The translations under genes and the position numbers were made by a program. From NCBI GenBank assembly GCA_017451735.1, contig JAFTNU010000040.1, positions 22,101-86,100 on the forward strand: a DNA stretch of 64,000 nucleotides. The letters run 5' to 3'. Source of the DNA: Clostridia bacterium. GTDB taxonomy: Bacteria; Bacillota; Clostridia; Oscillospirales; CAG-272. The notes beneath the pieces were generated by a model. That model was not told where the DNA came from and ran no database searches. It worked only from the letters and a program-made list of their open reading frames with translations. Below, piece by piece: positions 19,324-46,323 of the stretch. The stretch's first letter is position 1. The number at the start of each line of letters is the position of its first letter.

Positions 19324-19441
19324 GAGGTTGATTGAAATGGGCGCTTGGGGATTTACAACAAGCATTCTAGAGATTACAATCTAAAGCGAAAGGGTGTTTC
19401 GTTACGCGAGACTTCAAACTTCCATTTGAGGGAATGAAAAC

Positions 19442-19819
19442 GTGAAAAAATGGTTCTCTAAATTAGGCGAAAAAGTCGAGGATTTCTTTATATGGCTCTT
19501 TTGCGGCGATCATAAGCTGTTTTATGGTCGTGTTGAGATTCCGTTAAAGGGGGAAAAGTGGGATATACATATTGCCGATCCCGACTTTTTTCCCTCTGTG
19601 CCGCATCTACATGCTGTAGGAGATAGGCGCATAAGAATTGACGTGTACACGGGGGAGGTCTATTTCAAGCGAGTAAACACAGGAAAGCTGAGCGATAAAG
19701 ATTTCTATGCTTTGTGGCACAATGAAAAATTTTTAGAGGAAATTAAAAAAGCTAGAACTTATTATGTGCAAGAGCATCCAAATTACAAATTGCCTGATTT
19801 GCCATTCGATTATATTTGA
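19442..19819 (+). CDS. Hypothetical protein with H-x2-D-x-D-x-F-P-S-x-P-H-x-H motif (DUF4160-like)
   Basis: 125-aa ORF in the island; WDIHIADPDFFPSVPHLHA. Confidence 0.5.
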   Translation: MKKWFSKLGEKVEDFFIWLFCGDHKLFYGRVEIPLKGEKWDIHIADPDFFPSVPHLHAVGDRRIRIDVYTGEVYFKRVNTGKLSDKDFYALWHNEKFLEEIKKARTYYVQEHPNYKLPDLPFDYI

Positions 19820-20083
19820 AGATTGTGCATCTATTAAGGCCACACTTGAAATCTCAAAAATGTGGATTTTGGGTGAAATTCGATGATAAAAAAACGCCAA
19901 AACCCTTGAAAATACTGGGTTTTCGCGTTGTGGCAAGTGCATCTATTTTGACAACACTAGCCAACACAGAAAATACGAACCCCGAGTAATCGAGGTTCGT
20001 ATTTTTCTTTGCAAGGAACCGCTTCGATATTCAAATCCCGATAGAGGCTATAACTTCTGAAACGAACAAGGGGGAAAGCTTTT

Positions 20084-32100: not shown

Positions 32101-32166
32101 TGTACTGCCTCCCTTCACAGATTATCTTATATAGTATAGCACGCCGAAAGAAAAAAGTCAATGCCT

Positions 32167-32186
32167 TTCACGGAAAACATCATGTG
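32167..32186 (+). repeat. Left copy of 20-bp direct repeat (target duplication or att core)
   Basis: TTCACGGAAAACATCATGTG, identical to 45546-45565. Confidence 0.95.
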
Positions 32187-32243
32187 TCTAAATGTTAAAA
32201 TCTAACTTACAGACCGATTCTTCCCCGGTTTGTGCTTTAGGGG

Positions 32244-32306
32244 GCCCTTTTTGGACGCGCGAGCGCGTCCAAAAAGGGCTGTGCCCCCCCGCTAACAGGG
32301 GGGTAC
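32244..32306 (+). other. Double-strand origin: perfect 17-bp hairpin plus Rep_trans nick-site hairpin
   Basis: gccctttttggacgcgc-ga-gcgcgtccaaaaagggc, then gtgCCCCCCCGCTAACAGGGGGGtac, matching the CTAACAGGGGGG nic motif of ICEBs1/Tn916 Rep_trans (MOB_T) enzymes. Confidence 0.85.
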
Positions 32307-32342
32307 AGATATTCAATCTGATCTTTGGGGGTGCCGTTGAAA

Positions 32343-33590
32343 ATGGAACGCAAAGACGGCATTTTGATAGACTGGCTCTCGATCACATCGAAAACCATGT
32401 TCCCCGAGGATATGATGAAATTGATAGGAATTACCTCCGGGTGGCAGTTGCGCGGGCGCGGTGTTCGTGGGTATGGCGATTCATACTATAACAACTCCAT
32501 TCAAATTCATTTCGGCGGTACGCAAGATAACGTATGGTTGGAAATGAGCGGCCAGGGGTGTAGAACCTTTGAGTCCGATTCTATTCACAAAGATTATAAC
32601 GTAATCTTTGATGCTCTCATGAATAACCTTAACACTATGCGCATTACTCGTTTGGATATTGCGTTTGATGATTTTTCGGGTCTGCTGGATATTGATCGTA
32701 TTTGTGACGATACCCGGCCCAGAAATCACAAATATAAGGCCAAGACCGATTATGCTCAAGTGATAGAATCCACCAACGGTATGTCTTGTGATATAGGTTC
32801 TCCAAAGTCCCTGCTGCTTGTTCGTATCTATGATAAATTGGCAGAGCGGCTATCAAAAATGCGTGGGGCCGAGGATCGGGAAAAGGTCCGAGAGTCCATT
32901 CCACATTGGGTAAGATGTGAGTTACAGCTGCGCGATGAACGCGCTTTGGAATTTGTGCGCTATTTGCGCGGCAAGGATCCAATTACAGGAGCTCCCGAGC
33001 CCATGGACCTCGGACAAGCCTATTGTGGAGTATTGGCCAATTATCTGGATTACGGCTATGAAGTTCCCGCCCGCGATAATCCTAACAAAATGGTTTGGCA
33101 TCGTTTTCCGTACTGGAAAAAGTTTCTCAAAGAAGTCGGTGCGATTTCCTTGTACCGTAAGCCAGGCAAAGGTTATAACCTGGAGCGTATGGTTAATTTC
33201 GTGCAGAACAATGCCGGAAACGCTATCGATGCTGCCATCAGTATATTCGGCCCTTCGAAATTTTTTGATATTATTTCCAGTCGTCAGATTTCACAAAGTC
33301 CTAAATATTTGGAGTTGATTAAACAGTACGGTACATATGAGGAACGTGTTGAGACCGATATGGCCATTGATTTCCTGGAGAATAGTGCTCCCGAAACGGA
33401 AGAAGAAAAAGAAAACCGTCACCCGTTCTACAAGGTATTTGCCCGTCGTGAGTGGGTCGTTTGGGGCGGTGTTCGTCATTTGATGTGTCGCGAGTGCGGT
33501 CAAGTCATGCCGGAAAAGGCGTTTGTAGATGTGTCTATTCACTCTAATTTCGCCCGGTGTTATAAGTGCGATAATAAGAAATCCCCATAA
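32343..33590 (+). CDS. Rep_trans-family rolling-circle replication initiator with C-terminal CxxC..CxxC zinc ribbon
   Basis: IDWLSIT, LEMSGQGCR, ITRLDIAFDD, IGSPKS..VRIYDKLAER (catalytic Tyr), WVRCELQLR. Confidence 0.93.
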   Translation: MERKDGILIDWLSITSKTMFPEDMMKLIGITSGWQLRGRGVRGYGDSYYNNSIQIHFGGTQDNVWLEMSGQGCRTFESDSIHKDYNVIFDALMNNLNTMRITRLDIAFDDFSGLLDIDRICDDTRPRNHKYKAKTDYAQVIESTNGMSCDIGSPKSLLLVRIYDKLAERLSKMRGAEDREKVRESIPHWVRCELQLRDERALEFVRYLRGKDPITGAPEPMDLGQAYCGVLANYLDYGYEVPARDNPNKMVWHRFPYWKKFLKEVGAISLYRKPGKGYNLERMVNFVQNNAGNAIDAAISIFGPSKFFDIISSRQISQSPKYLELIKQYGTYEERVETDMAIDFLENSAPETEEEKENRHPFYKVFARREWVVWGGVRHLMCRECGQVMPEKAFVDVSIHSNFARCYKCDNKKSP

Positions 33591-33629
33591 ACATAAAAAA
33601 CATATAAAAGAAAAGCGAGGAAAAGCAAA

Positions 33630-33950
33630 ATGAGAGGATTTATCGTAGGAAAAGAAGTAACCAGTTACATTTCCAAGGAGGAAAAAAACAAGCCTAATCC
33701 GCAGTCTAAGATTAGTCGCACCCTGTATGTGGTCTGGGATAAGCCCCGCCGTTCTGTGGAGGGTATGGAGGGATTCAAGGCTGAGGCCGTTTGGGTTCCG
33801 TTCTCCTGTGATGATATCAAAGTGGGTGACTATTGTGAATTTGAGTATGAAGCCCGTAATACTTCCAAGGGTTCATTTGCATCCCTGGTAGATATCATCG
33901 TCATCGGCAAAGCCGATATTCTTCTGGAAGCTTCCAAAGCTAAGGCTTGA
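33630..33950 (+). CDS. Putative single-stranded DNA-binding protein (pV-like)
   Basis: 106 aa, beta-rich and aromatic, directly after rep as in filamentous phages; GAGG RBS; function inferred from position. Confidence 0.6.
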   Translation: MRGFIVGKEVTSYISKEEKNKPNPQSKISRTLYVVWDKPRRSVEGMEGFKAEAVWVPFSCDDIKVGDYCEFEYEARNTSKGSFASLVDIIVIGKADILLEASKAKA

Positions 33951-34072
33951 CGGACTTCTCTGCCGGGAAGAGTCGGGGATTTCTTTACTTCCGGCAATCG
34001 CGCCATTCTGTTGAGGGACGGATAAGGCGCATCACATTTATCTATAACGCTACCCTCATAGCGTGTAGAACT

Positions 34073-34100
34073 GGGTGGGGGCGCGGCTCCCACCCTTTTA
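34073..34100 (+). terminator. Terminator after rep-ssb
   Basis: gggtggg-ggcgcggct-cccaccc followed by tttta. Confidence 0.55.
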
Positions 34101-34201
34101 TTGCATTTAAGGCGGTGATTGTATGAAGTAGACGCATAGTCTTTTCTCAGATATATCTATCCCAAACTTCCCACAAAATCAAAAAACAAAGGAGAAAATC
34201 G

Positions 34202-34324
34202 ATGGCAAGACGTAGAAACGGTCGTAAACGTAAGAGATATTTTCTTACTCCGAAAAGAGCTCTTTTAAGAGAGGATATTGGAAGGGCTTTTGGACGGGAA
34301 GAAAAAGACATCGTTAAAAATTAA
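34202..34324 (+). CDS. Small Arg/Lys-rich peptide (40 aa), not in ORF track
   Basis: AAAGGAG RBS; MARRRNGRKRKRYFLTPKRALLREDIGRAFGREEKDIVKN. Confidence 0.6.
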   Translation: MARRRNGRKRKRYFLTPKRALLREDIGRAFGREEKDIVKN

Positions 34325-34349
34325 AACATAAAAAAGTGAGGTATAAATC

Positions 34350-34880
34350 ATGAGTAAGAAAACAAAAAGAATTCTGACCGCCGTAGGCATGTTGATGCTG
34401 GGTGTGCTGCTGACGGTTGTGGTCAGTAATGCCGTTGGTGTTGCAACCTGGAACATCCGCGAAGCCAATGAAGCAAACCTGTATCAGTCGGTTACCTTTG
34501 CCGGTACGGACGGTGTGATCGCCAGCGGCGAAAACGGCGTCAAGATCGAGCTAACCGATGACAATGAGATCAAGGTCAAGGGCACCTCCGAGACAGATGG
34601 TACTTATGTGATCGGTAAGATCACTTTGGAGGCAAACACATCGTACATCTTTGACTCCTCCCTGACCAATGGTTCTAACGGTACCATGTATATGTCCATC
34701 ATGAGCGGCGAGACAGAGCTGGCTAAATCTTATTCCGGTGCTGTGGTCTTTACGCCCACCAGTGCCACAGAGGTGCAGATCTGCCTTTACATCAATAAGG
34801 ATGTCAAAACCAATGTGACTTTGTGTCCCGTTCTCTGCAAGGGTACCACTACCGGTGATATCGTCGATTTCTGGGAGTAA
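34350..34880 (+). CDS. Membrane-anchored beta-rich protein, putative virion protein
   Basis: GAGGT RBS; basic N-terminus plus hydrophobic helix, then Thr/Ser/Gly-rich beta strands. Confidence 0.75.
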   Translation: MSKKTKRILTAVGMLMLGVLLTVVVSNAVGVATWNIREANEANLYQSVTFAGTDGVIASGENGVKIELTDDNEIKVKGTSETDGTYVIGKITLEANTSYIFDSSLTNGSNGTMYMSIMSGETELAKSYSGAVVFTPTSATEVQICLYINKDVKTNVTLCPVLCKGTTTGDIVDFWE

Positions 34881-34883
34881 TTC

Positions 34884-36176
34884 ATGGGCAAGTTTTGGCT
34901 TGCGTTGTTGGTAGTCCTGGTGTGTCTCGGATGCGTTGTTGGGGCGACAAACTTCAATAACGCATTCGGCACAGTGGAACGTGTATCCTCCGAGGCCTCC
35001 GAATCCGATGATATATCGACAACCAAATTCATTGTGATCGAGGAGGAATTCTCCAGTGTAGAAGCTATGAATGCCGGGTTTGAGACCGATGGTGTTCCTT
35101 TCGGTGGGTATGTTCTGATTAACACCGATAATGTTGAGGATGCGGACAACGCGAAATTGTATGTAAAACGTGCGGATGGTTACAAGCTGGTCACCGACTT
35201 GTCCGGTGCTCAAGGTGAGCAAGGCCTCCAGGGTGAGCAAGGCATTCAGGGTGAGCAAGGTCCTCAGGGAGAGCAAGGTTCTCAGGGAGAGCAAGGTCCC
35301 CAGGGTGAGCAAGGCCCTCAGGGTGAGCAAGGTCTCCAGGGCGAGCAAGGTCCCCAGGGTGAGCAAGGTCCCCAGGGTGAGCAAGGTCCTCAGGGTGAGC
35401 AAGGTCCCCAGGGTGAGCAAGGCATTCAGGGAGAGCAAGGTCCTCAGGGAGAGCAAGGTCCCCAGGGTGAGCAAGGCATTCAGGGAGAGCAAGGTCCTCA
35501 GGGTGAGCAAGGTCCTCAGGGTGAGCAAGGTCCTCAAGGTGAAAAGGGTGATCCCGGTGTCAGCGTTATAGGGGCAACCATTAACGCAAGCGGGCATCTT
35601 ATCATTACTCTTTCGGATGGTAATACCATTGATGCAGGATTGGTCATCAGTGGCTCTACCGATAGCGGTTCGGGTGATTCGGGTGACAGCGGTGATTCGG
35701 GAGAAGACACTACGGTTACGGTGACCGACATTTGCTTTTGGGATATTGATAATTCGAAATGGGTAGACAAAAACGATTATGATTACGAAGAATCAGCTCA
35801 AAGAGGCAGTTGTCCGCACTGCGGCAATTTCATATATGCTGAATCCGGCCTCTCGGGACTTGAAGTCGAATGTCCTCATTGTCGAAAAGTCATTCTTTTA
35901 AGCAACCGTGAAGGCTCGCTTGTGGTCGATAGAGTGTACGCTGATGATACCGTGACCTATGAGGTGAATAGTAGCGGTACCATCGATCTGTCCACTATCG
36001 GTACTTACTATGCCGGTGGCTCAATGTATTACTATTACGATGAAGCATATGGTGTGATGTTTTTGACTTGGTATATGTTTGATGAATATGGAGAAGATAT
36101 TACAATTACGATGGATGATGGCACATTGATCACGATTGTATCATCCGATTGGAAATTCAATCCGTATTATGTTTGA
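34884..36176 (+). CDS. Membrane-anchored collagen-like protein, putative adhesin or fibre
   Basis: N-terminal hydrophobic helix, 39 Gly-X-Y triplets, GHLIITLSDG motif, GDS linker, two CPHC motifs. Confidence 0.85.
   Translation: MGKFWLALLVVLVCLGCVVGATNFNNAFGTVERVSSEASESDDISTTKFIVIEEEFSSVEAMNAGFETDGVPFGGYVLINTDNVEDADNAKLYVKRADGYKLVTDLSGAQGEQGLQGEQGIQGEQGPQGEQGSQGEQGPQGEQGPQGEQGLQGEQGPQGEQGPQGEQGPQGEQGPQGEQGIQGEQGPQGEQGPQGEQGIQGEQGPQGEQGPQGEQGPQGEKGDPGVSVIGATINASGHLIITLSDGNTIDAGLVISGSTDSGSGDSGDSGDSGEDTTVTVTDICFWDIDNSKWVDKNDYDYEESAQRGSCPHCGNFIYAESGLSGLEVECPHCRKVILLSNREGSLVVDRVYADDTVTYEVNSSGTIDLSTIGTYYAGGSMYYYYDEAYGVMFLTWYMFDEYGEDITITMDDGTLITIVSSDWKFNPYYV
35214..35537 (+). repeat. 18 tandem copies of an 18-bp coding unit (GEQG[P/I/L/S]Q)
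   Basis: ggtgagcaaggtccccag-like unit repeated without spacers. Confidence 0.95.
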
Positions 36177-36194
36177 TCAGAATAGCGAATCAAA

Positions 36195-36231
36195 TAACAG
36201 CCTATGGCCTTTTGGGCTGTAGGCTGTTTTT
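36195..36231 (+). terminator. Internal terminator in the structural module
   Basis: aacagcctatggcc-tttt-gggctgtaggctgtt followed by a T run. Confidence 0.6.
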
Positions 36232-36245
36232 ATAAGGAGCGAGAG

Positions 36246-36935
36246 ATGAGAAAAAGAGTTTTACTGATATTGTTAGTATTGGCGCTTGCGCTTTGTATTT
36301 TGCTGTGCGTGTCGTTGAGTCAAAGCATGAATGAAACCGTTAGAGTTTCCGGGACGGCATCCAATACAAATACAACGGAGCCTGAGCCCGATACAACAGA
36401 ACCCGACACAGGTACAGAGGATGATACTGATCAGGAAACGGGCAGTGATTTGACGGTTGAAGCTCCTACATCCCCCGCCGGCTATGTGAATCAAATTCAG
36501 TTCAATGATGTGACATTGACTGATGTTGTGTTTAGCGAAGAGGCCGAGCTTTACGGCAATTTCTATGTTTATGCCGATTCCGGTACGATTACATTGGACG
36601 CGGATTTGGATGAATATGCTGATGATTCTTTATTGCCCGCCATCGGTACTATAACACTGGAACCGGGATATACCTATTATGGCTTTTATACCACATCGTT
36701 TTTGGAAAACGGAGAATACCGTGAGATCAATAAAGTGTATACAGGTACAGATTTGTTCGGTAGTGAGTATTCCTATACTGATTTCACACTTTTGGGTTGG
36801 TATGATACCAACGGTATCACTGTTGAACATAGTGAAACAAGGGTGCTTTATATGCGAAATGGTATAGACGGTTCTCATGAATTACTGGAATGCGGCAATT
36901 ATTATCTTTATATCATCGCTGTTCCCAACACATAA
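36246..36935 (+). CDS. Membrane-anchored acidic protein with Thr/Glu/Pro/Asp linker
   Basis: AAGGAG RBS; MRKRVLLILLVLALALCILL; TTEPEPDTTEPDT linker. Confidence 0.75.
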   Translation: MRKRVLLILLVLALALCILLCVSLSQSMNETVRVSGTASNTNTTEPEPDTTEPDTGTEDDTDQETGSDLTVEAPTSPAGYVNQIQFNDVTLTDVVFSEEAELYGNFYVYADSGTITLDADLDEYADDSLLPAIGTITLEPGYTYYGFYTTSFLENGEYREINKVYTGTDLFGSEYSYTDFTLLGWYDTNGITVEHSETRVLYMRNGIDGSHELLECGNYYLYIIAVPNT

Positions 36936-36953
36936 AGCGAGAAGGAGTAAAAA

Positions 36954-38873
36954 ATGAAAAGAAGAATTTTGTGTTTGATCTTGTGCGTGATAACGCTTGT
37001 GCCGCTGCTTGCCATTGCACCGAGCGCGGCCACCGATGTGGATGTGGCGGATGAGCTGGAAAACTATACGATTGACGGGAAAGCATTTGATCAGAGCGAT
37101 TATCCGTTGGATCCTATGGATACCGATGTGTACATTTTGACTATCCGAGAGGAGGGCGTGGATCCTGCTGTTTCGTATGTACAATGGAGTTATAAGTTCT
37201 ATATCTATTTTTATAATCCTTCCGGGAGAAATCTGACCATGAGTGATGATTCGGTCGTATTCATGACTTTCAGTGAGGAAAACGATGACACCTATGTCTC
37301 CACAGCAGAGCCATGTTACGTGGTAGATATCCAATATAGCTCGGATAACCGTTTCCTTCGGGTGCAGTATGATGTTCCCAAACTGTTTGTAAGTCAGAAT
37401 TATGACCGTCGCATCTATCATATTTATGAGTTCCGCTTTTGGGAGTATCATGCTAAGTATAATGCTTGCTTTTTTGTAACCGGCTTTGAAACAACTGATA
37501 ACTTGGCTTATAGTGAGGGATCTTTTTTGACCTTGGATTTGGAGCTGAACGGAACGGTCTGGCGTGATGAGAACTTTGTGTCTTTGGATGACCCTTATCA
37601 TTACCAGGAGCTGGCCACCGTTTATTTTACAATTCCCCAGGATGTCTATGAAGTATATGATCGTATTTATCAGGTAACGACCGAATTTTTCCTGTTTAAT
37701 TCTACGCCGATCGTTGTGACCAATTCAGAAGAATTGAACAATATGGATATTGCTTATCTGAAGTCCGGATACACGGTAGACAATTACATTGAGGGTGTTC
37801 CTACGCTTTCTTATGGTGATCTGTATTATGTAAAATATTTTGCCGGAGAACCGAATGTGTTTATTGCTCCGGAATGGGTTTATAATCCTGCAGATAAAGC
37901 ATATCTGGAGTCTATATATGATTTCTTTTCAGTATATGGATATGATTATTTTACAGAGATTTACCCGTCTTTGTGTTATTTCTTCTATAATCCCGATATT
38001 GTGGTAGACGAAAAGAACAATTCCTTTTATCAGGCGGTTCCTTCCGGTCAATTGACCTCTTATGTAGACCAGTTTTCGCAATACTATTATCCTGATACTT
38101 ATACATCATTTGTTTGCGGTATAGCTCCCGAATTGTATGAAAGCATGGAAAAGTACAATGTGGTGTTGAATCCTGAGGATATTTACGATTATGAATTGGG
38201 TACCACGATTGATAAGCCTTATGAAGATCGCAGTTGGTGGGCCCGCATTTGGAATCTGGATAAATGGCAAGAGGTTACCGAGAAGGTAAAGCAGGTTTTT
38301 GTTATAACCGATCCTGCTGCTGTTGCGGCACAGTATGCAAATGATCCGGTTGGCCTTTCCGAGGCATATAAAATTGGTGTTGCGGATGCTCCGGGCTTTA
38401 TTGAATATTTGCGCAATGCAGATGGAGTTGTGACGCTTTGTCGCTTTGCCAATACCCAGTATGAGTGTCGCGAATTGGATTGCAATCCCAAATTGACCGA
38501 TGGTGATGTGTGGCTTTGCCGGGCGAGCTTTTATCAGGATGTGGATGTCACTTTTGTGACGTTTGAAAAAGACGGTAAAGAATACGTGTATGCGGTCAAT
38601 GCTGATCCTATTGATATGGATGGTGGTGTTGGCGTCAAGAATGATGCTAATCTTAAGCCCAGCTTTAATTCAAACGAGTTTAAAAATGCCGTATATGCTT
38701 TGTTGAGCGGCGCCAGGGATGCAGGCAGTAAGTTGAAAAGCACGTTGATCATCGTGGCAATTGTCCTTCTGCTGGTATTCATTGTTTGGCTTATAGTCAA
38801 ATTATTTGGTCCGGGACAGAAGGTTACTATCAAGTACGATCCGCCAGATGGGAAAAGGAAGAGAAAAAAATAA
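36954..38873 (+). CDS. Type I membrane protein, putative attachment (pIII-like) or spike protein
   Basis: AAGGAG RBS; signal peptide ending PSAA; C-terminal TM TLIIVAIVLLLVFIVWLIV plus GKRKRKK tail. Confidence 0.78.
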   Translation: MKRRILCLILCVITLVPLLAIAPSAATDVDVADELENYTIDGKAFDQSDYPLDPMDTDVYILTIREEGVDPAVSYVQWSYKFYIYFYNPSGRNLTMSDDSVVFMTFSEENDDTYVSTAEPCYVVDIQYSSDNRFLRVQYDVPKLFVSQNYDRRIYHIYEFRFWEYHAKYNACFFVTGFETTDNLAYSEGSFLTLDLELNGTVWRDENFVSLDDPYHYQELATVYFTIPQDVYEVYDRIYQVTTEFFLFNSTPIVVTNSEELNNMDIAYLKSGYTVDNYIEGVPTLSYGDLYYVKYFAGEPNVFIAPEWVYNPADKAYLESIYDFFSVYGYDYFTEIYPSLCYFFYNPDIVVDEKNNSFYQAVPSGQLTSYVDQFSQYYYPDTYTSFVCGIAPELYESMEKYNVVLNPEDIYDYELGTTIDKPYEDRSWWARIWNLDKWQEVTEKVKQVFVITDPAAVAAQYANDPVGLSEAYKIGVADAPGFIEYLRNADGVVTLCRFANTQYECRELDCNPKLTDGDVWLCRASFYQDVDVTFVTFEKDGKEYVYAVNADPIDMDGGVGVKNDANLKPSFNSNEFKNAVYALLSGARDAGSKLKSTLIIVAIVLLLVFIVWLIVKLFGPGQKVTIKYDPPDGKRKRKK

Positions 38874-38947
38874 CAAAAATCCCCGGCTGAAATATGCCGG
38901 AGACAATAAATAGTCGTGTGGACTTAAAACACAGAAAGGAAATACAT

Positions 38948-39145
38948 ATGGCAAGAAGTTATTATGGAAACAAGGGCTACAAAGGTCGGAGCGGCAAAAA
39001 GAGCAAATATAATGATTTGCAGAGATTTGCATATAAGATGGGGCAGATTGAAAGGGGTCGAAAAAATCCTGATAGTCTGATTACCGAATCTTATAATAAC
39101 GGAAAAACACCTCGTGAAAAGAAGCAAAAGAAGTCTTTGTTTTGA
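38948..39145 (+). CDS. Small basic protein (65 aa)
   Basis: AAAGGA RBS; MARSYYGNKGYKGRSGKKSK...KKQKKSLF; followed by a terminator. Confidence 0.7.
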   Translation: MARSYYGNKGYKGRSGKKSKYNDLQRFAYKMGQIERGRKNPDSLITESYNNGKTPREKKQKKSLF

Positions 39146-39151
39146 TTAACA

Positions 39152-39184
39152 CAAAAGCACTCGCTCATAGAGCGAGTGCTTTTG
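39152..39184. terminator. Bidirectional terminator
   Basis: caaaagcactcgctc-ata-gagcgagtgcttttg. Confidence 0.85.
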
Positions 39185-39988
39185 TTATTCGTTTACTTTC
39201 CCAGGTTCGGCAAATGCAATTTTCATTTTGTAGGAGTTATTTTCGACTTCCTGTTTATTGATATATATTACGGTGATATTGTCTCTTTGGCACAACTGCG
39301 GATATATTTCCGTTTTGTAGTCTTTTGTGTTTTGATATGAGATATTGGATTTTCCATATCCCCAAAATTCTATATAAATGTTGTTAAGGATGGTGCCGTC
39401 TTTTCGTTTTAATTTTGGGATATAAAAATCTGGGGTGAGTTTGTGATTTTTATCTAATGGTATTATTTTTTCGTATGCATGCAATATTCCTGTATGATAT
39501 AGCCAATCATCTATTATTTGTTCATAAGGACTTTTGACCTTGTGCCCGTCTTCACAAAGGAAAGGAGATGCGTATTCAGCATCAAGTAGTTTAAACGAGT
39601 CGCAGTTTTCCGCTTTTAAAAACAATGTTTTGTTTTTGTATTTTGAGTAACAGTCGCGACAAAATAGATATGTTCCAGCACTATTTTCACAGATAATACA
39701 TTTTCTGTCGGTTTCATCATTTTCGAATCCATCCTGAGGAATGCAATCATCAATTAGCTCGAATTCATCACAGTTTTTGCATTGTAATGTAATAGTTTTA
39801 TTTTTGTACTGATAATAGCATTCACGGCAAAAGAGGTATTCGCCGCTATCGTTGCCACAAATAAGACACTCTCCTGACACATCCTCCCATTCTTCAAAGG
39901 ATAGATTTTCTTCGTCATTTTCTTCATAATAGCAATTTTTGCAAAGGGGGTAACGTCCGCTATATTTTCCACATTTTTCACAATACAT
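39185..39988 (-). CDS. Cargo protein with three CxxC-x9-CxxC zinc fingers and a C-terminal PD-(D/E)XK-like nuclease domain
   Basis: CEKC..LCKNC, CLIC..FCREC, CIIC..FCRDC; DGHKVKSPYE..IDDWLY..HAYE..PDFYIP..YIEFWG; AT-rich. Confidence 0.72.
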   Translation of the reverse strand: MYCEKCGKYSGRYPLCKNCYYEENDEENLSFEEWEDVSGECLICGNDSGEYLFCRECYYQYKNKTITLQCKNCDEFELIDDCIPQDGFENDETDRKCIICENSAGTYLFCRDCYSKYKNKTLFLKAENCDSFKLLDAEYASPFLCEDGHKVKSPYEQIIDDWLYHTGILHAYEKIIPLDKNHKLTPDFYIPKLKRKDGTILNNIYIEFWGYGKSNISYQNTKDYKTEIYPQLCQRDNITVIYINKQEVENNSYKMKIAFAEPGKVNE

Positions 39989-40047
39989 GGCACATACTCC
40001 TTATGTGTTTGTTGTAGCAATTATACACCCTCACCAAGTAAAAAGTC

Positions 40048-40077
40048 AAGCCCCGCGGGAATTCCCGCGGGGCTTTA
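40048..40077. terminator. Terminator after ATPase gene
   Basis: aagccccgcggg-aatt-cccgcggggcttt. Confidence 0.7.
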
Positions 40078-40095
40078 TCTTTTGAAAGTGCACTT

Positions 40096-42405
40096 TCAAT
40101 CCCTGTGTTTTCTTTGTTCCAGGTACTGCCGGAGCGCTGCGGCCAGGCGTCTTTGAGCGGGCTTGACCTCGGTGTAATAGTTGAAGTCCTCCGGATCCAG
40201 ATTCTCATTGGTCTGCATGAGCGGATCAATCGGTTCCGGCTTGTCCGCATCCACATTGTAGTAGGTAAACAGATCTCGGTTGAGGAAGGAATGCGCTTTC
40301 TTCATATCGAGCACGGTGGCGTACTTGTCCCGGTATGTGGCCAAGTCGTTCAGCCCCACCTTGCAGCGGGCGGTCTGCAGCTCGGTGAAGGCTTTGAAAT
40401 AGTCGGTGGCATAGCGCTCCGCATAGGCCTTTTTGAACATAACATAGTATTTCTTTTCCTCCACATTTTTGCTTTCCTTGCCCGCCTGGATGTTGGCCAC
40501 GGTGGTGGTCTCGCAGAGCATGTTCTGCTGATAGTATCCGTAAAGGTTTTGACGCCGAGTGAGATACCCGAACAGAGCGGAGGCAACTCCCTGGCCCAGC
40601 CAGGTGATCAGATGATGATTGCCCCATTTGAGTCGGCTCTCATTCCATACGCCCCGCCACCAGTCTATGTATTTGCCCAGGATCCCATCCTCGACCCAAA
40701 AGAGAGGCAAGGCATTACAGGTCTCCTTGTGCTTCTCGATATGCATGACCTGACAGAGTTCATGGCCGTCAGCGCCCCAGGAGGACACGCGCTGAGCATT
40801 GCAGAATACGTGCATAAAGCATCGATTGGCAAGCATGGCCGGCTGGCCCGACATTTTGAACCAGGTGTTGAACAGGTCGTTCTTCTGATTGCACTCATCC
40901 TCCCTGGCCTTGACCTCCTTCAGCTGATCCATGTTTTTGCGCTCCTTGTCGATCTCTGTGATCACCAGAACGCCAAACTCAAAGGCCCCAACATTGGGAT
41001 TGTCCTCCAGGATCTTCCGCCCCGGCCGAAGCATATCATAGTCCAGAATGTGGCAGTATTTGCCCTCGATGTGGATCCTGGCAGGATCCCGGTGAAAAAA
41101 GTCCACGTCCACTAACGGAAAGTTGCCCTCGTCCTCCAGGATGAAATCGTCACGGATCGGCAGATTGGCCAGGATGTAGGAGGTGGTCATGGTGTAGCTG
41201 AAATAAGCCTGCACGTATTCCTCCAGCGCATCCCACACGGAGATCTCCTTCAGGTTGTCGTTGAAGTAGTAGGCATACTGCTCTACATCATAATGCCAGA
41301 TCTGTGTAGGGTCCATGGAAAAGGCATAGGTCAGCCGCCGCACGCGGATCCAGTTGCGAGCTGATACCCAGTGCTTGATGGTGCCGTCGTGAATACGGTT
41401 CTTGATCTCCAGCTCAAAGGTGATCCACGGGAACCGTGGGAACTTCATTTGATTCTCATTGAGGATTTTCAGATACTCCTCCCGATCCATGGCGGCACGG
41501 GTAATGGCCATGTCGTTCTGTACCATATCCTTGCCGGCGCGCATGGGTGCCGCAAAGAAGGTGGCCTGTGGAGCCTCATTCAGCATCCCCTTGTTCTTTG
41601 CCTCCATGTGCTGGAGGCGATCCATACCCTTGCGCTGCCTCCACTTGTCAAATAGCCAGATCAAAAGCACCGCCCAGCAGATTCCCGGCAAGACATGCCA
41701 GGTCAAAAGCACATCTACCACCAGCTTGATGCATTGCCGCCCAAAGGTGGATAAATCCAGAAAATTGAGAATGTAGAAATAGTAGGCTAAGAATTCCAAT
41801 ATCAGGGTATATACGCCCAGGTATAAGAGCCAGATAGCGGCAAAAGCCGTCCACCATCGGGAGCCCCGGAAGAAGTCCCAGAAATCCAGACACCAGTCTT
41901 TGATATGACCGTAAGGCGTTGCTACGATTCGCTTGTATATCCGCAGGGGCTTTGTGTCTTGGTTGTAGTCGTTGTTGATGTCATCCCAGGTTACGATCAC
42001 AGGCATTGAGAGAAAGATCACCACGATCATGAAGATAGAAAGCCAGTAGATGATCTGCATGAAGTAGTACAGTAAGAACGACAGATATTGGAGCAGATTC
42101 TCTCCCACGAAAATATGGTCCTTTAGCTCGGTGAGCTTGCGGACGATCTCGGCCAGATCAATGCCGATCTCGCTTTGCAGATTGACTGCCGAAAAGTCGT
42201 TGACCGTCTGCTGAAACGGGAGACGGTCTCCCAACCCCAGGAGATCTGCAAAGGTGTAGGCAATGATGCGGCCGAAGTCGCCAAGGCCCTCCAGAAATCG
42301 GTAGAACGGATATTGATAGACGAACACTCCCAGGGCCACGGACCCCAGGATGATGCCAAGGCACAACCAGTGCCGGTAATTGATACTTTTCAGCTTGTTC
42401 CACAT
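40096..42405 (-). CDS. Multi-TM P-loop ATPase, pI/Zot-like morphogenesis or packaging protein (FtsK-HerA superfamily, inferred)
   Basis: Several N-terminal TM segments; Walker A variant FAAPMRAGKD; Walker B GVLVITEIDKE; HVFCNAQR. Confidence 0.7.
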   Translation of the reverse strand: MWNKLKSINYRHWLCLGIILGSVALGVFVYQYPFYRFLEGLGDFGRIIAYTFADLLGLGDRLPFQQTVNDFSAVNLQSEIGIDLAEIVRKLTELKDHIFVGENLLQYLSFLLYYFMQIIYWLSIFMIVVIFLSMPVIVTWDDINNDYNQDTKPLRIYKRIVATPYGHIKDWCLDFWDFFRGSRWWTAFAAIWLLYLGVYTLILEFLAYYFYILNFLDLSTFGRQCIKLVVDVLLTWHVLPGICWAVLLIWLFDKWRQRKGMDRLQHMEAKNKGMLNEAPQATFFAAPMRAGKDMVQNDMAITRAAMDREEYLKILNENQMKFPRFPWITFELEIKNRIHDGTIKHWVSARNWIRVRRLTYAFSMDPTQIWHYDVEQYAYYFNDNLKEISVWDALEEYVQAYFSYTMTTSYILANLPIRDDFILEDEGNFPLVDVDFFHRDPARIHIEGKYCHILDYDMLRPGRKILEDNPNVGAFEFGVLVITEIDKERKNMDQLKEVKAREDECNQKNDLFNTWFKMSGQPAMLANRCFMHVFCNAQRVSSWGADGHELCQVMHIEKHKETCNALPLFWVEDGILGKYIDWWRGVWNESRLKWGNHHLITWLGQGVASALFGYLTRRQNLYGYYQQNMLCETTTVANIQAGKESKNVEEKKYYVMFKKAYAERYATDYFKAFTELQTARCKVGLNDLATYRDKYATVLDMKKAHSFLNRDLFTYYNVDADKPEPIDPLMQTNENLDPEDFNYYTEVKPAQRRLAAALRQYLEQRKHRD

Positions 42406-42412
42406 GGTTACC

Positions 42413-42511
42413 TCATACGATGTAATAGAGCAAGAATACCAGATAGCCGAGGAACAAAGCCCCGGCTATAATGGCAAGGATGGTTAGGGTGCGTAGGAGG
42501 ATCTTTTTCAT
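42413..42511 (-). CDS. 32-aa single-TM peptide, not in ORF track
   Basis: MKKILLRTLTILAIIAGALFLGYLVFLLYYIV; AAGGAGG RBS; ATGA overlap with the upstream gene; stop runs into the ATPase RBS. Confidence 0.75.
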   Translation of the reverse strand: MKKILLRTLTILAIIAGALFLGYLVFLLYYIV

Positions 42512-42780
42512 TTGTTGTCCTCCTTATAGCATAGTTCATACATTTCCAAACGGGTATAAGTAAGATGCCGCCAGCAACCTTGCATTTCGTCCCAAAACTC
42601 GACTTCGTGATGCCAGCAATCTATATTAAGGCAACATATACATTCGAATGTTTCGCCGTCCACCGTGATCTCCCAGTGCTCTTTATCGTTATGAGCGCTG
42701 ATGATACCGCCGATAATACCGCAAATGACCACCAAGGCCAGCCATACGATCCATGTGTTATTTGAAATAAATTCAAGCAT
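42508..42780 (-). CDS. Hypothetical 90-aa protein with N-terminal TM helix
   Basis: AAGGAGG RBS; MLEFISNNTWIVWLALVVICGIIGGII. Confidence 0.65.
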   Translation of the reverse strand: MLEFISNNTWIVWLALVVICGIIGGIISAHNDKEHWEITVDGETFECICCLNIDCWHHEVEFWDEMQGCWRHLTYTRLEMYELCYKEDNK

Positions 42781-42956
42781 TTTTCTTCCTCCTTTCGTGA
42801 CGCATTTTTTTTGAGTGCCAATACAACGTGCGGGCAGTATTCGCCGTCTATACCGCGCCAAGCGCAGTCGATCATATTAGGGTGAGTTTTTTTGTATTTT
42901 TCTTTGCAGACGGTGCAAGCAAATTCCAAAAGCTCGTTTTTAGGTTCGATTTTCAT
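42621..42956 (-). CDS. Small Cys-rich hypothetical protein, 3' end uncertain
   Basis: GAAAGGA RBS; CTVC..C..C; overlaps the next gene unless the A8 run at 42805-42812 is one base too long. Confidence 0.4.
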   Translation of the reverse strand: MKIEPKNELLEFACTVCKEKYKKTHPNMIDCAWRGIDGEYCPHVVLALKKNASRKEEEKCLNLFQITHGSYGWPWWSFAVLSAVSSALITIKSTGRSRWTAKHSNVYVALI

Positions 42957-43044
42957 GTATTTTCCTTTCCGGGTGCCGAGGCACCCTGCGTGGTAGCGGA
43001 CGGGAGTAGGGCTCCGCAGGGCGGGGGCCGAAGCCCCCGTGGGT

Positions 43045-43227
43045 TTATGCCACTTCAAAAAGAATGGCAATTTTAAGCGTGTTGTTGAAATAGTCTGTAA
43101 GATCTGTCATAGCTTGAAAAATCTTAATGCCAGGGATCTCGATAACATCGTAGGCACTAAAGGCAACGCTTTTTATGTTGTATCCTTTGCTCCCTTTGCT
43201 GATGGTGAAAATAGCGGTCTTTTCCAT
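43045..43227 (-). CDS. Hypothetical protein (60 aa)
   Basis: AAGGAG RBS, packed operon. Confidence 0.6.
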   Translation of the reverse strand: MEKTAIFTISKGSKGYNIKSVAFSAYDVIEIPGIKIFQAMTDLTDYFNNTLKIAILFEVA

Positions 43228-43237
43228 ATCTTTCTCC

Positions 43238-43435
43238 TTAAAGAGTGTAATTGAAGTGTATATTTAAAAAGGTTTTGATTTTGTCTTTGAGTTGTATTGC
43301 TTCTTCAGTTGGGATGCTGTATTCAGCGATGTTTAAAGCGCGGTATATTTCAAACAAATCTGTATCAGTAAGTTGATCGATGGAGATATTGTCAGGTCCT
43401 GAAAAATGATGCCTGATAATATAAGCGTTTTTCAT
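43238..43435 (-). CDS. Hypothetical protein (65 aa)
   Basis: TAATG stop-start overlap with the upstream ORF. Confidence 0.6.
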   Translation of the reverse strand: MKNAYIIRHHFSGPDNISIDQLTDTDLFEIYRALNIAEYSIPTEEAIQLKDKIKTFLNIHFNYTL

Positions 43436-43620
43436 TAGTCATTATTTCCTTTCACTTCGATATAGATCGCATCGTTCTCGGTGTAGATATATTTGATCTC
43501 TCGCTCTGCCGCCTCCTCGACGGTCAGCACCTTGCGCCGTTCGGCCTCATAGTCATAGTAGCAAAAGACGATCCGGCATTGAATGTCGATGCCTTGGCAC
43601 TTCATATCGTTGTAGGTCAT
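43435..43620 (-). CDS. Hypothetical protein (61 aa)
   Basis: GAAAGGAAGG RBS. Confidence 0.6.
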   Translation of the reverse strand: MTYNDMKCQGIDIQCRIVFCYYDYEAERRKVLTVEEAAEREIKYIYTENDAIYIEVKGNND

Positions 43621-43650
43621 TTTCCTTCCTTTCCGCCCAAAATTGAGGGC

Positions 43651-43679
43651 TTGACAAATATTTTGGTTTGTGTTATACT
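43651..43679 (+). promoter_or_regulatory. SigA promoter (extended -10) firing antisense to the small-gene operon
   Basis: TTGACA-17-TATACT with TGn. Confidence 0.8.
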
Positions 43680-43685
43680 ATGTGT

Positions 43686-43776
43686 GCAGGTGACTAACAG
43701 GGCGGGCAGGCTCGCCCCGTTAGCCGTTAAGATACTCGAGTGCGCTCTGGGCAGAGGACTCGGGTATCTTTTTTAT
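43686..43776 (+). ncRNA. Candidate ~90-nt antisense regulatory RNA
   Basis: Promoter, hairpin ctaacagggcgggc-ag-gctcgccccgttag, then terminator aagatactcgagt...actcgggtatctt plus T run. Confidence 0.55.
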
Positions 43777-43880
43777 TTAGTTAAGTAGTCGATAAGTTGA
43801 GCAATTTCCGCATCGCTCCAGTGGAGTTTACGGAAATACTCGAAAATGCGTTGAATGTGCTTGTCATTCAAAGTGGGCAT
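43773..43880 (-). CDS. 35-aa peptide, possible regulator
   Basis: GAAAGGA RBS; MPTLNDKHIQRIFEYFRKLHWSDAEIAQLIDYLTK. Confidence 0.55.
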   Translation of the reverse strand: MPTLNDKHIQRIFEYFRKLHWSDAEIAQLIDYLTK

Positions 43881-44472
43881 TTCTTCCATCCTTTCCACCA
43901 CCTGCCAAGTAACTGCCGGCTTTTCACCCCGTGAGAGTTCTCGGCACTCACGGCTACCATCCATATCCCCCCCTTTCCCGGAACCCCAGAGCCCAACGGG
44001 CTCCGCATCCCCACCGCCGGGGCGGTGGACTTCATGCTCCTTCGGTCCCTGCTTCCCATCGCGTCCTTTCGCTCGCGAGGGATATTCAGACCTCCGGTGT
44101 GATTCCTTCATGCTCCTTTCGGTTGCCCTGTTCCCGAAGATGAAGCAGCACTGTAGACCCGCAGGGTCAAGGGATCAGACGAAAAAGTTTTCCTACCTTA
44201 AAAGTCGATCTCAGGAAAAGTTTTTCGGCCCCTTGACCATGCGAGGATACTGTGCTACGATTCGAAGCGGAACTGGGAAACAGAAAGGTGCGGGAAGAAC
44301 ACTCAAGGTAGGAATATCCGAGCAAAAGAGCGAAATCCGCGTCCCGCCATCCGCAGATGGCGAAATCCCAACATTTGAAGTAAAAGGTAGAGCAAACGGT
44401 CTGGGGGCGCGGGAGCCAGCGGGTCAGCGGCCCCGCGCCCCCAGTGCTCTCCTTGAAGGAAAGGAATAGGAT

Positions 44473-45531
44473 ATGGCATACAAGCGCATCACTTACACGC
44501 TCCGACTGGAGATAGAACGCTTCTACAACACGTTCCACATGAACGCCGTTCAGATTGCCAAGCTGCTTGGCTACTCACATGTCGCTATCTATGCCGAACT
44601 CAAAAAAGGCTATTGGATGAAAAGAAATTCCGATTGGACCGAAACCAAGCAATATAGTGCAGACAGAGCCCAGCAGAATGCAGATTTTAACAAAACTACA
44701 CGTGGCGCCCAGCTTAAAATAGAAAACGATCACGACACCCTCGCCGTGATCGAAAAATTGATGCTCAAGCGCAAACTCTCTCCCGCTTCTGCCCTCGCCA
44801 CCATTGAGAGAGAACATATTCCCGTAAAAACCAAAATGTGCGTTACAACCCTTTACCATTACATTGATAAAGGACTTTTTCGCCGTCTCACAAATAAGGA
44901 TCTTATCTATAAGGGTACAAGAAAAAGAAAATACCGCAAGGTAGAGAAAGCGAAAACTCCACCTCGCGGTACTTCTATTGATTTTCGTCCTCCTCACGTT
45001 CTCAACCGGGACGAATTTGGTCACTGGGAACTTGATAGCGTGATCGGCAAAAGAGCTAAGGGCCAAACGCTCCTTGTCCTCACAGAGCGAAAAACGCGCT
45101 TTGAGCTTGTTTTCCGTTCTAAGGATAAAACGGCCGCCTCCACCGTAAAGATGCTGGACAGGCTTGAAAAACGGCTTGGTACACCCAAGTTTAAGAAGAT
45201 TTTCAAAACAATTACGTGTGATAATGGATGCGAGTTTGCGGACTATGAAAATATGGAACTATCGACCAGAGGTAATTCCCGTAGAACAAGCGTTTATTAC
45301 TGCCACCCATATAGATCTTCTGAGCGTGGATCCAATGAGAACCAAAACGGCATCCTCCGGCGCTTCATCAAGAAGGGCACCGCTATATCACATTATACCG
45401 ATGCGGAAATAGCTCAGGCACGCGATTATTTGAACGACATGCCCCGCAAACTCTTTAATTGGGAAACGGCCCGCGAACGCTTTAATGCCGAGCTTGCCAC
45501 CCTCGGAATAAAATTTTTTGAGAAAATTTAA
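44473..45531 (+). CDS. IS30-family DDE transposase
   Basis: N-terminal HTH, GHWELDSVIG, LTERKTR, TITCDNGCEF, CHPYRSSERGSNENQNGILRRF, LNDMPRK. Confidence 0.95.
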   Translation: MAYKRITYTLRLEIERFYNTFHMNAVQIAKLLGYSHVAIYAELKKGYWMKRNSDWTETKQYSADRAQQNADFNKTTRGAQLKIENDHDTLAVIEKLMLKRKLSPASALATIEREHIPVKTKMCVTTLYHYIDKGLFRRLTNKDLIYKGTRKRKYRKVEKAKTPPRGTSIDFRPPHVLNRDEFGHWELDSVIGKRAKGQTLLVLTERKTRFELVFRSKDKTAASTVKMLDRLEKRLGTPKFKKIFKTITCDNGCEFADYENMELSTRGNSRRTSVYYCHPYRSSERGSNENQNGILRRFIKKGTAISHYTDAEIAQARDYLNDMPRKLFNWETARERFNAELATLGIKFFEKI

Positions 45532-46319
45532 TTTAGGGGTTGACATTCACGGAAAACATCATGTGCGGCAAGCGCCTCCCGCTTGCTCTCACCCAAAGCA
45601 TGATAGGCCAACAGCTCATGCGTCAACCCGCGGGCGGCACAGTAGGCCCGAATACGCTCCACCTCTTCCCCCTGATTGAAATCGGGGATCACAGGGGTAC
45701 GGATGATCATTTTTTTACCCGAATTTTGCAAACGGTCCAGATTTTTTAGGATCAATGTATTGGAAACACCGGTTCCGCGACAGTGAAGCGCGCTGTCAAG
45801 CGCTTTGATATCATACAAAAAAATATCTGTATAGGGCAGAACTCTCTCAAAGGCCGCATACGGCACATTTCCCGCAGTATCTACCGCCACCGAAACGCCG
45901 TTTTTCTGACACCGTTCCGCCACATTCGCCAAAAAATCGGGATAGAGCATGCACTCGCCGCCCGAAAAGGTCACACCGCCGCCCGTGGCATGATAATAGG
46001 GCTTGTCGGCCAGGATCGCGGTCAGCAATTCCTCCACGGTATAAGGTTTGCCGTAAAGCCTTCGCGCCTCCGTGGGACAGCCCGTGACGCAAGCGCCGCA
46101 GACCGTGCAGGCCGCAGGCGAAGCACAAACCTTGGCACAATTGCCACAGCCCATGCACTTCTCAGCAAAAAAAGCAATTTGGGCATCGGGGGACTTCCCC
46201 TCCGGGTTGTGGCACCAGAAGCAGTTCAGATTGCACCCCTTGAAAAAGATCACGGTACGCACACCGGGGCCATCATTCAGCGAAGCGCGCTTTATATCAA
46301 AAATCAGCGGTTTTTTCAT
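45528..46319 (-). CDS. Glycyl-radical enzyme activating protein (radical SAM with ferredoxin insert)
   Basis: DGPGVRTVIFFKGCNLNCFWCHNPE, CxxCxxC insert, GGVTFSGGE; last residues CQPLN come from the inserted element. Confidence 0.93.
   Translation of the reverse strand: MKKPLIFDIKRASLNDGPGVRTVIFFKGCNLNCFWCHNPEGKSPDAQIAFFAEKCMGCGNCAKVCASPAACTVCGACVTGCPTEARRLYGKPYTVEELLTAILADKPYYHATGGGVTFSGGECMLYPDFLANVAERCQKNGVSVAVDTAGNVPYAAFERVLPYTDIFLYDIKALDSALHCRGTGVSNTLILKNLDRLQNSGKKMIIRTPVIPDFNQGEEVERIRAYCAARGLTHELLAYHALGESKREALAAHDVFRECQPLN
45546..45565 (+). repeat. Right copy of 20-bp direct repeat
   Basis: TTCACGGAAAACATCATGTG, identical to 32167-32186. Confidence 0.95.
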
Positions 46320-46323
46320 ACCG

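Follow-up and report, generated by a model that had tools for sequence, protein, structure and literature searches.

The stretch of DNA analyzed here (hereafter the window) comprises 64,000 nt from a Clostridia bacterium of the Oscillospirales lineage CAG-272 (assembly GCA_017451735.1, contig JAFTNU010000040.1, positions 22,101 to 86,100 of the forward strand) and contains a 13.4-kb integrated virus-like element. Between its putative attachment sites, this element encodes a rolling-circle replication initiator, a module of membrane and surface proteins at 34202-39145, a membrane ATPase, a small membrane peptide and an IS30-family integrase (Table 1; positions are those of the window, and L numbers designate the loci compared). 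The initial annotation had described the module as a structural one built of membrane-anchored proteins, and this description is partly supported: the gene content indicates a small, non-tailed virus-like element of the rolling-circle type, in which the module would supply virion or surface proteins. The kind of particle that such a module would serve is considered below; an extruded temperate phage resembling the inoviruses and plectroviruses is the preferred reading, to which we give an even chance.

Table 1 Features of the virus-like element (aa, amino acids; ORF, open reading frame)
Feature	Position	Strand	Evidence and remarks
Integrated virus-like element, 13.4 kb	32162-45565		Direct repeats, low GC, Rep_trans initiator, IS30-family integrase
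Putative attL, left copy of a 25-nt imperfect direct repeat	32162-32186		92% identity to the right copy
Perfect 17-nt inverted repeat	32244-32279		Precedes rep; may be an origin or a regulatory hairpin
Rolling-circle replication initiator, 421 aa	32325-33590	+	Pfam Rep_trans 1.5e-29, Rol_Rep_N 5.5e-8; phrog_453 3.7e-23
106-aa protein ('ssb' of the initial annotation)	33630-33950	+	One homologue, in L006
GC-rich hairpin followed by a T run	34073-34095	+	Between the 106-aa ORF and the surface-protein module
40-aa Arg-rich ORF, lineage-specific or spurious	34202-34324	+	AGGAG ribosome-binding site
176-aa acidic ectodomain protein, variable slot 1	34350-34880	+	N-terminal hydrophobic segment; homologues in L003, L005, L006, L092
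430-aa collagen-like fibre with Cys4 zinc-ribbon-like motif	34884-36176	+	N-terminal hydrophobic segment; Pfam Collagen 5.1e-20
229-aa acidic protein (ORF of 243 aa from 36204), variable slot 3	36246-36935	+	N-anchored or secreted; 26% identity to the 273-aa protein of L092
639-aa core protein	36954-38873	+	Signal-peptide-like N-terminus, beta-rich ectodomain, C-terminal transmembrane helix (~594-614), Lys/Arg tail
65-aa Lys/Arg-rich protein (ORF of 83 aa from 38894)	38948-39145	+	Homologue in L055 only, plus a weak one in L017
Zinc-ribbon plus nuclease-like protein, 267 aa	39185-39988	-	Homologues in 15 loci
769-aa core ATPase	40096-42405	-	Four N-terminal transmembrane helices; RecA-like P-loop domain with a ~130-190-aa insert
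32-aa peptide with single transmembrane segment and basic N-terminus	42413-42511	-	Beside the ATPase gene; candidate major coat or membrane protein
Cys-rich protein with N-terminal transmembrane segment, 90 aa (ORF of 117 aa to 42861)	42508-42780	-	AGGAGG ribosome-binding site; homologues in L005 and L006
Four small ORFs (60, 65, 61 and 112 aa), no function assigned	43045-44111	-	Two with homologues in L006
IS30-family DDE transposase as integrase, outward-pointing	44473-45531	+	NCBIfam transpos_IS30 5e-65, 220 bits against a cut-off of 80; Pfam rve, HTH_38
Putative attR, right repeat copy	45541-45565		Overlaps the 3' end of the host radical-SAM activase gene

All six ORFs that the initial annotation placed in the module were confirmed on the plus strand at the positions it gave, spaced 4-28 nt apart, and homologues of the 176-, 430-, 243- and 639-aa products in related elements set these ORFs beyond chance. 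The hydrophobic N-terminal segments of the 176-, 430- and 229-aa proteins could equally be membrane anchors or cleavable signal peptides, and the three proteins represent variable ectodomains of adhesin or fibre type rather than a conserved coat. In the 430-aa protein, 18.8 copies of an 18-nt repeat encode GEQGPQ collagen triplets; tail-fibre PHROGs are matched with E-values up to 5.4e-49, mostly via these repeats, and residues 53-108 share 55% identity with proteins of crAss-like phages. The 176-aa type is not homologous to the proteins found in the same slot of other relatives, where the N-anchored positions are taken by several families with LRR_5, DUF4988, beta-propeller, collagen or tail-protein domains. 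Since this slot holds unrelated ectodomains in different relatives, the earlier suggestion that the 176-aa protein might be an atypical major coat is not upheld. The tail-protein domain phrog_5302 is found among relatives (8.5e-29), and a 397-aa protein of L077 shares a domain with tailed phages of Clostridium and Lactobacillus. Such ectodomain cassettes in common with tailed phages point to the exchange of receptor-binding modules between very different viruses. Sharing of cassettes is also seen within one genome: a second, colinear copy of the element lies in the same genome (contig C1, locus L092, 5600-13900) and encodes, in order, an N-anchored protein of 182 aa, a collagen protein of 389 aa, a 273-aa protein, a 657-aa protein with a signal peptide and C-terminal transmembrane helix, a 40-aa peptide, a 721-aa ATPase and a G2P-type Rep. 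The 182- and 389-aa proteins of this copy share 51% and 60% identity with the 176- and 430-aa proteins of the window, which shows that the two co-resident elements have cassettes in common. The 40-aa Arg-rich ORF, for which a role in DNA condensation had been proposed, has no homologue in any related locus by phmmer or tblastn, so that a conserved role of this kind is not supported; at positions similar to that of the 65-aa protein, relatives encode unrelated basic proteins. Pfam, PHROGs and NCBIfam returned nothing informative for the 106-, 176-, 229-, 639-, 83-, 267- and 769-aa proteins or the peptide; for the 229-aa protein, Pfam and PHROGs gave no family match at all, and for the 106-aa protein there was no Pfam match and a single PHROG, of unknown function (E 0.007), which leaves its label 'ssb' unconfirmed.

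The 639-aa protein has the type I topology of a pIII- or spike-like protein, in line with the signal peptide and C-terminal transmembrane helix that the initial annotation had noted. Its family aligns over the full length across 34 sequences (alignment A3), and at least 11 homologues, none of them named, were matched by the family search, with no match in Pfam, PHROGs or the sequences of the PDB. A crude rule based on hydropathy places a large protein with signal peptide and C-terminal transmembrane helix upstream of the ATPase in 41 of 56 loci, and 11 of the 15 loci that it misses have a cluster-5 homologue there (52 of 56 in all); in L003 and L006, this protein is encoded on the strand opposite the ATPase, exactly as in the window. 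An AlphaFold2 (AF2) model (pLDDT 75.9) is beta-rich with a C-terminal helix. The structure search that the initial annotation had proposed for this protein yielded, as best viral match in BFVD, ORF1 of Acholeplasma phage L2 (591 aa). The match is weak (E 2.3e-3, prob 0.66 and a root-mean-square deviation of 22 over 587 columns, TM-score 0.15-0.16), and the sequence profile of the family gives P values of 0.05 against L2 ORF1 and 0.017 against L2 ORF13, with 0.4 for a reversed control. The modelled similarity may thus be taken as a lead towards plasmaviruses and no more. Because of this match, an enveloped particle is kept as a rival, although a somewhat unlikely one. On this view, which is that of the initial annotation, the virions would be pleomorphic vesicles corresponding to those of plasmavirus L2 or, in archaea, of the pleolipoviruses, with the 639-aa and N-anchored proteins as spikes, the 32-aa peptide as an internal membrane protein, the ATPase loading or budding the genome and the basic proteins condensing it.

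No pVIII-like coat gene was reported in the initial annotation. For the plus-strand operon at 34202-39145 this stands, as no free-standing ORF of 45-80 aa with a single transmembrane segment is present there; for the element as a whole it does not, since the 32-aa peptide on the minus strand, with its single transmembrane segment, is a coat-like candidate and belongs to the family core. A GGAGG ribosome-binding site precedes the gene by 7 nt, and 8 nt separate its end from the start of the ATPase gene. In 72 of the 77 loci with enough upstream sequence, the ATPase gene is immediately preceded by one for a homologous peptide, and a variant peptide is present in three of the five loci that miss the standard one. 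In the colinear relatives, which form the majority, the peptide directly follows the 639-aa homologue in the same operon. Across the family, the peptide measures 26-40 aa (median 32 aa), and its consensus (alignment A5) consists of M-K-x-x-K-R-I-L, about ten hydrophobic residues and I-G-Y-F-I-Y-T-G. The first ten residues have a median net charge of +3, and of the 72 tails that follow the aromatic motif, 34 are neutral, 25 are acidic (the lowest at -10) and 13 are positive. This layout is that of a filamentous-phage coat protein in reverse, a resemblance that is suggestive only, as the positive-inside rule also explains it. A further idea, that the anchored proteins carry copies of the coat peptide at their N-termini, was dropped, as the hidden Markov model (HMM) of the peptide finds none.

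The ATPase is present in all 82 loci. Its AF2 model (pLDDT 77.5, pTM 0.69) shows a helical membrane domain (residues 1-277) followed by an alpha/beta P-loop domain (~280-660), and the protein belongs to the RecA-like P-loop class. Within that class, the Zot/pI family ranks first in three comparisons, none of them decisive, and is weakly favored. In an hhalign comparison of 250 family members with 80 Zot proteins plus ORF2 of the Spiroplasma plectrovirus SpV1, the match reached 84.4% (E 7e-6, 234 columns), with these pairs aligned in order: Walker A; SNYSIR/VYSNV-I; Walker B; KM-RH/K-HRH; D-Q/SQ; and REL/R-LA. Controls gave 0.2% for reversed Zot, 0.3% for VP8 of HRPV-1 and 30% for an SF3 helicase, and for Zot itself, the scores were 48-49% with P-loop families unrelated to it and 96% with its true members. 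Foldseek searches of BFVD with the model returned Inoviridae Zot proteins (prob 0.94 and 0.80, E of at least 0.077), behind a top match that is unnamed (E 2.1e-3). Against the PDB, Foldseek gave no match at E<=1e-3, and sequence-profile searches with alignments A1, A3 and A4 gave nothing useful; a match to a trypanosome ATP-synthase subunit (E 0.003) was judged to be chance. Models from the ESM Atlas were poor (pLDDT 0.36 and 0.32) and provided no lead.

Relatives of the ATPase define a large family in gut Clostridia and some Mollicutes-like Bacilli. One search gave 138 matches, and the 120 listed have no Pfam domain and only 'hypothetical' as a name; among 1.8 billion representatives, relatives at E<=1e-3 fall into 1,273 clusters (50% clustering), and none of the family relatives has a Pfam or PHROG name. 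In species-representative genomes, 448 of 468 candidate loci were confirmed, with two or three copies in some genomes. The hosts are mostly metagenome-assembled genomes of Clostridia (Christensenellaceae, Oscillospiraceae, Borkfalkia/Coproplasma), together with a few contigs of Anaeroplasmataceae or Pelethenecus. Of 200 genomes drawn evenly from the class, two contained the ATPase, the genome studied here included, and Pfam Zot was likewise present in two. In virus collections, the ATPase was found in two contigs of IMG/VR (searched with two peptide patterns) and one INPHARED record; the latter, the lone record from a phage collection (L083, MT835493.1, 'Bacteriophage sp.', faecal), is an unannotated 'UNVERIFIED' scaffold of 57 kb. 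L077, a contig of 13,154 nt, is taken to be circular because of a 141-nt repeat at its ends, a feature unique among the 82 loci. In a search of the literature that left supplementary files aside, no description of the family was found; the unknown integrated elements grouped as a 'Clostridiales' cluster in PMC6668415 may overlap with it. If virions are produced, current gut virome surveys miss a common class of phages that infect Christensenellales and Oscillospirales chronically and without lysis. The particle question can be tested directly, as one carrier, Pumilibacter intestinalis CLA-AA-M10 (L045), is in culture.

Clustering and mapping of all ORFs in the 82 loci revealed a recurrent gene order: a small basic protein; two to four N-hydrophobic proteins with acidic ectodomains; a protein of 450-750 aa bearing a signal peptide and a C-terminal transmembrane helix; the small transmembrane peptide; the ATPase; a second small basic protein; and Rep, often followed by the zinc-ribbon nuclease and an integrase. 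Only three genes form the core, namely those for the ATPase, the peptide and the large protein, and none of the three products has a sequence match in Pfam, PHROG, NCBIfam or PDB. In the window, the peptide-ATPase block is inverted (minus strand) relative to most relatives, which is a trait of its clade, as L003 and L006 show the identical arrangement. The surrounding modules are more changeable. The initiator is a G2P-type Rep in 57 loci, Rep_OBD plus S3H in seven and Rep_trans in the window; integrases are of the IS30, other rve or tyrosine type, with an IS30 transposase in 24 of the 82 loci; and S24 and Cro/CI-type repressors occur. The L077 homologue of the 267-aa protein matches phrog_9019 (resolvase, 1.5e-5). 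The backbone modules of L077, L032, L011, L001 and L036 differ from one another, with Rep_OBD plus SF3 helicase initiators and integrases of the rve or tyrosine type, and this set also includes an S24 LexA/CI-like repressor, a DnaJ-domain protein and a DNA methyltransferase. Among 71 proteins of seven relatives, Pfam domains for lysis, capsid, portal, terminase or type IV secretion are absent, and no peptidoglycan hydrolase was found.

This gene content bears on the possibility that the element is not viral, but an integrative conjugative or mobilizable element in which the rolling-circle protein would be a relaxase, the ATPase a TcpA/FtsK-like translocase and the surface proteins mating adhesins. 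Rep_trans proteins are indeed related to MobT relaxases (a weak match), adhesins of the collagen and LRR types are present, and the scarcity of the ATPase in virus collections would fit. However, the initiator scores 45 bits against NCBIfam MobT (NF041493), for which the cut-off is 600, and thus falls outside that family, and no FtsK_SpoIIIE, T4CP, VirB4, VirB6, VirB8 or hydrolase Pfam domain is found in the window or in the 71 proteins of relatives. A virus is preferred because type IV secretion parts and a hydrolase are missing, because most relatives carry phage-type (G2P) initiators and because the family combines domains of phage fibres and tail proteins, CI/S24-type repressors and, in its core, a small basic-ended transmembrane peptide. 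A conjugative element is accordingly regarded as distinctly unlikely.

Several observations establish the integrated state of the element. The module lies in a block with a GC content of 35-52%, in comparison with ~55% in the flanks, and homology to the congeneric genomes G204 and G211 stops at 32168. The left repeat copy would restore a similar end of the host radical-SAM gene. An exact empty site was not found in G204 and G211, which are without both the element and the adjacent radical-SAM gene. In contigs assembled from three runs of one study, both junctions are bridged and the depth equals that of the flanks. The radical-SAM activase gene (45528-46331) is itself missing at this site in the two congeners, where the left flank continues, after 17-48 nt, into a homologue of the aldo-keto reductase gene at 46324-47259. 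Contigs of these runs (X1-X3) also have loose ends at 34127/34132, 35229/35557, 36942 and 39960/39969, the first of which marks a variant breakpoint just downstream of the hairpin at 34073-34095, and in X2 and X3 position 39988 is joined to 34314 with 10 extra letters. Together, the loose ends and the joint suggest co-occurring variants with another structural cassette or a rearrangement of the block. Elsewhere in the window, a second low-GC island (36-41% GC, 15160-20000) adjoins a tRNA-Leu gene (15160-15244) and codes for a protein of 1,101 aa that contains three DUF4379 treble-clef zinc fingers and shows a weak REase-like match.

In the extruded phage that we propose, the genome would be produced through rolling-circle replication, presumably as single-stranded DNA. 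The peptide would build up in the membrane with its basic end on the cytoplasmic side, and the membrane ATPase would power non-lytic extrusion of peptide-coated DNA as a filament. The 639-aa protein could cap the particle and have a role in entry, and the 176-, 430- and 229-aa proteins may be exchangeable host-binding or surface proteins, in keeping with the collagen fibre in the window and the LRR and tail-protein domains in relatives. A number of observations weigh against this proposal. The hhalign score comes mostly from the P-loop, with P values of 0.05-0.07 for the segment after Walker B alone; the Foldseek E-values for the ATPase all exceed 1e-3; and in the VIA list, Zot lies within 1 Z unit of Rad51/RecA and the TcpA coupling protein. 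Pfam Zot is unmatched by the 769-aa protein and 28 relatives and was not found in the genome studied here, in L077 or in L001. To our knowledge, every coat protein has its basic end at the C-terminus, the opposite of the arrangement in the peptide, and in M13, SpV1 and a clostridial Zot inovirus, minor small transmembrane proteins occupy the slot just before the ATPase. For the tip of a filament, four or five large ectodomain proteins is a high number. The contigs of the three runs contain neither a circle junction nor excess depth. Finally, the clade of the window has a deviant Walker A motif, AAPMRAGKD (residues 283-293), in place of the family G-x-M-G-x-GKT, and SGQ/SGH in place of the RH motif (residues ~519-523); both changes recur in relatives of 53-84% identity.

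These last points could indicate a defective remnant, in which the integrated copy would be silent and its ATPase catalytically dead. The inverted peptide-ATPase block can be read in the same way. In opposition to this, all genes are intact, and rare excised forms are invisible in contigs. Moreover, the motif changes and the inversion are conserved across L003-L006 at 48-84% identity, and because of this conservation we argue for selection. A defective copy is held to be very unlikely.

Further observations bear on the choice between an extruded filament and the enveloped vesicle introduced above. In favor of the vesicle, the order of large membrane protein(s), small transmembrane protein and P-loop ATPase is common to L2 and HRPV-1, an array of several membrane-anchored ectodomain proteins is easier to place on an envelope than at the tip of a filament, many relatives have small basic proteins flanking the module, and some hosts are Mollicutes-like (the Anaeroplasmataceae and Pelethenecus contigs). 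On the other side, the resemblance to L2 ORF1 is low in TM-score and in sequence, neither L2 ORF13 and ORF3 nor HRPV-1 VP4 and VP8 showed any similarity, and the Arg-rich 40-aa peptide is not conserved. Most hosts are labelled Clostridia and are walled; the capsid-less enveloped prokaryotic viruses known to us infect wall-less hosts. The filament is preferred because the ATPase leans to Zot and not to VP8, because the architecture is plectrovirus-like and coupled to an IS30 integrase, because replication and integration modules are promiscuous as in inoviruses, because the hosts are mostly walled and because no wall hydrolase was found. Swapping of these two modules is described for inoviruses by Kazlauskas 2019 (PMC6668415). 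Read as a capsid-less, membrane-assembled small DNA virus, the family has a real chance of being more than that. It might represent a new major viral lineage in walled gut Clostridia, capsid-less and assembled at the membrane, that marker-based detection has missed. Its members would be either enveloped, pleomorphic and distantly linked to the orphan plasmavirus L2, and thus the bacterial equivalent of pleolipoviruses that has long been lacking, or filamentous with a coat peptide of reversed polarity and a new membrane-fused ATPase for export; this prospect is considered doubtful.

Among known systems, the enveloped viruses and one group of tailed phages provide partial parallels. Acholeplasma phage L2 (Plasmaviridae, NC_001447; L084) resembles the family in its circular, integrating genome of ~12 kb and in the series ORF13-14-1-2-3, where big membrane proteins, a small transmembrane protein and a P-loop protein follow in the same order: ORF3 (312 aa, Walker A) comes after ORF1 (591 aa, two C-terminal transmembrane helices) and ORF2 (81 aa, two transmembrane helices). 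In contrast, no L2 gene has sequence similarity to the family, L2 has no rolling-circle Rep, its integrase is different (per the record annotation), and its ATPase is without a transmembrane domain. HRPV-1 (Pleolipoviridae, FJ685651) likewise encodes a Rep, a small membrane protein, a type I spike, small transmembrane ORFs and an ATPase; it differs in its archaeal host, and its VP4, VP8, ORF6 and ORF7 all score a prob of at most 0.4% against the family profiles. The IScream phages (PMC12823448), which are prophages of gut Clostridia, share with the element an outward-pointing IS30 transposase that serves as integrase. According to the same paper, these phages have IS30 genes at both ends together with tailed-phage structural and lysis genes. 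The element carries a single IS30 gene and no such set, with tailed-phage structural families present only as fibre and tail-domain fragments, and thus does not belong to this group.

The Zot-type inoviruses of Gram-positive bacteria compared with the family are the clostridial L094, gut 'Clade-1' (PMC8530359), the Enterocloster inoviruses (PMC10061712) and Propionibacterium phage B5. Like the family, these viruses replicate by the rolling-circle mechanism, have no lysis genes, are temperate with direct repeats and exchange replication modules, and their longest gene, with a C-terminal transmembrane helix, is followed by small transmembrane ORFs and then by the ATPase. Unlike the family, they possess a stand-alone Zot domain of 200-250 aa that Pfam recognizes and small transmembrane proteins with basic C-termini, and they do not have arrays of large N-anchored ectodomain proteins. 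Gut Firmicute inoviruses with a recognizable Zot measure 5.6-9.4 kb (PMC8530359) or 6.5-8.5 kb (PMC10061712). According to PMC6813254, the pI/Zot-family morphogenesis ATPase is the sole universal marker of Tubulavirales. Two other traits by which this order is defined are present in the family: replication by a rolling-circle initiator or transposase in a genome with no lysis or capsid genes, and a short protein (30-90 aa) with one transmembrane segment, for which the 32-aa peptide is the candidate structural protein, with its basic end at the N-terminus and not at the C-terminus.

The system that the element most resembles in layout is SpV1-R8A2B (Plectroviridae, NC_001365). SpV1 also has an IS30-family transposase, and the HMM of the family integrase matches SpV1 ORF3 at 3e-29. 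In SpV1 ORF2, as in the family ATPase, the P-loop follows N-terminal transmembrane helices; ORF1 (715 aa) has a signal peptide and C-terminal transmembrane helix like the 639-aa protein; and ORF10 is a small transmembrane ORF that abuts the start of the ATPase. Neither SpV1 nor the family has lysis genes, and the SpV1 host lineage is derived from Firmicutes. There are clear differences. SpV1 ORF2 is an evident Zot relative (96.6%), in contrast to the family ATPase, which reaches no more than 84% and, at twice the length, contains four transmembrane helices and a large insert; alignment A1 pairs with ORF2 at Walker A only (9-37%). The 639-aa family has no homology to SpV1 ORF1 (prob 0.3%), so that the homology to ORF1 and ORF2 by which Plectroviridae are defined is missing and the IS30 transposase is the sole homologue. 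The genome of SpV1 is 8.3 kb in comparison with 13-15 kb for the family, which, unlike SpV1, encodes a Rep as well. By analogy, we read the core trio of 639-aa protein, 32-aa peptide and ATPase as the functional counterpart of pIII, pVIII and pI, in a layout that is closest to that of the plectroviruses.

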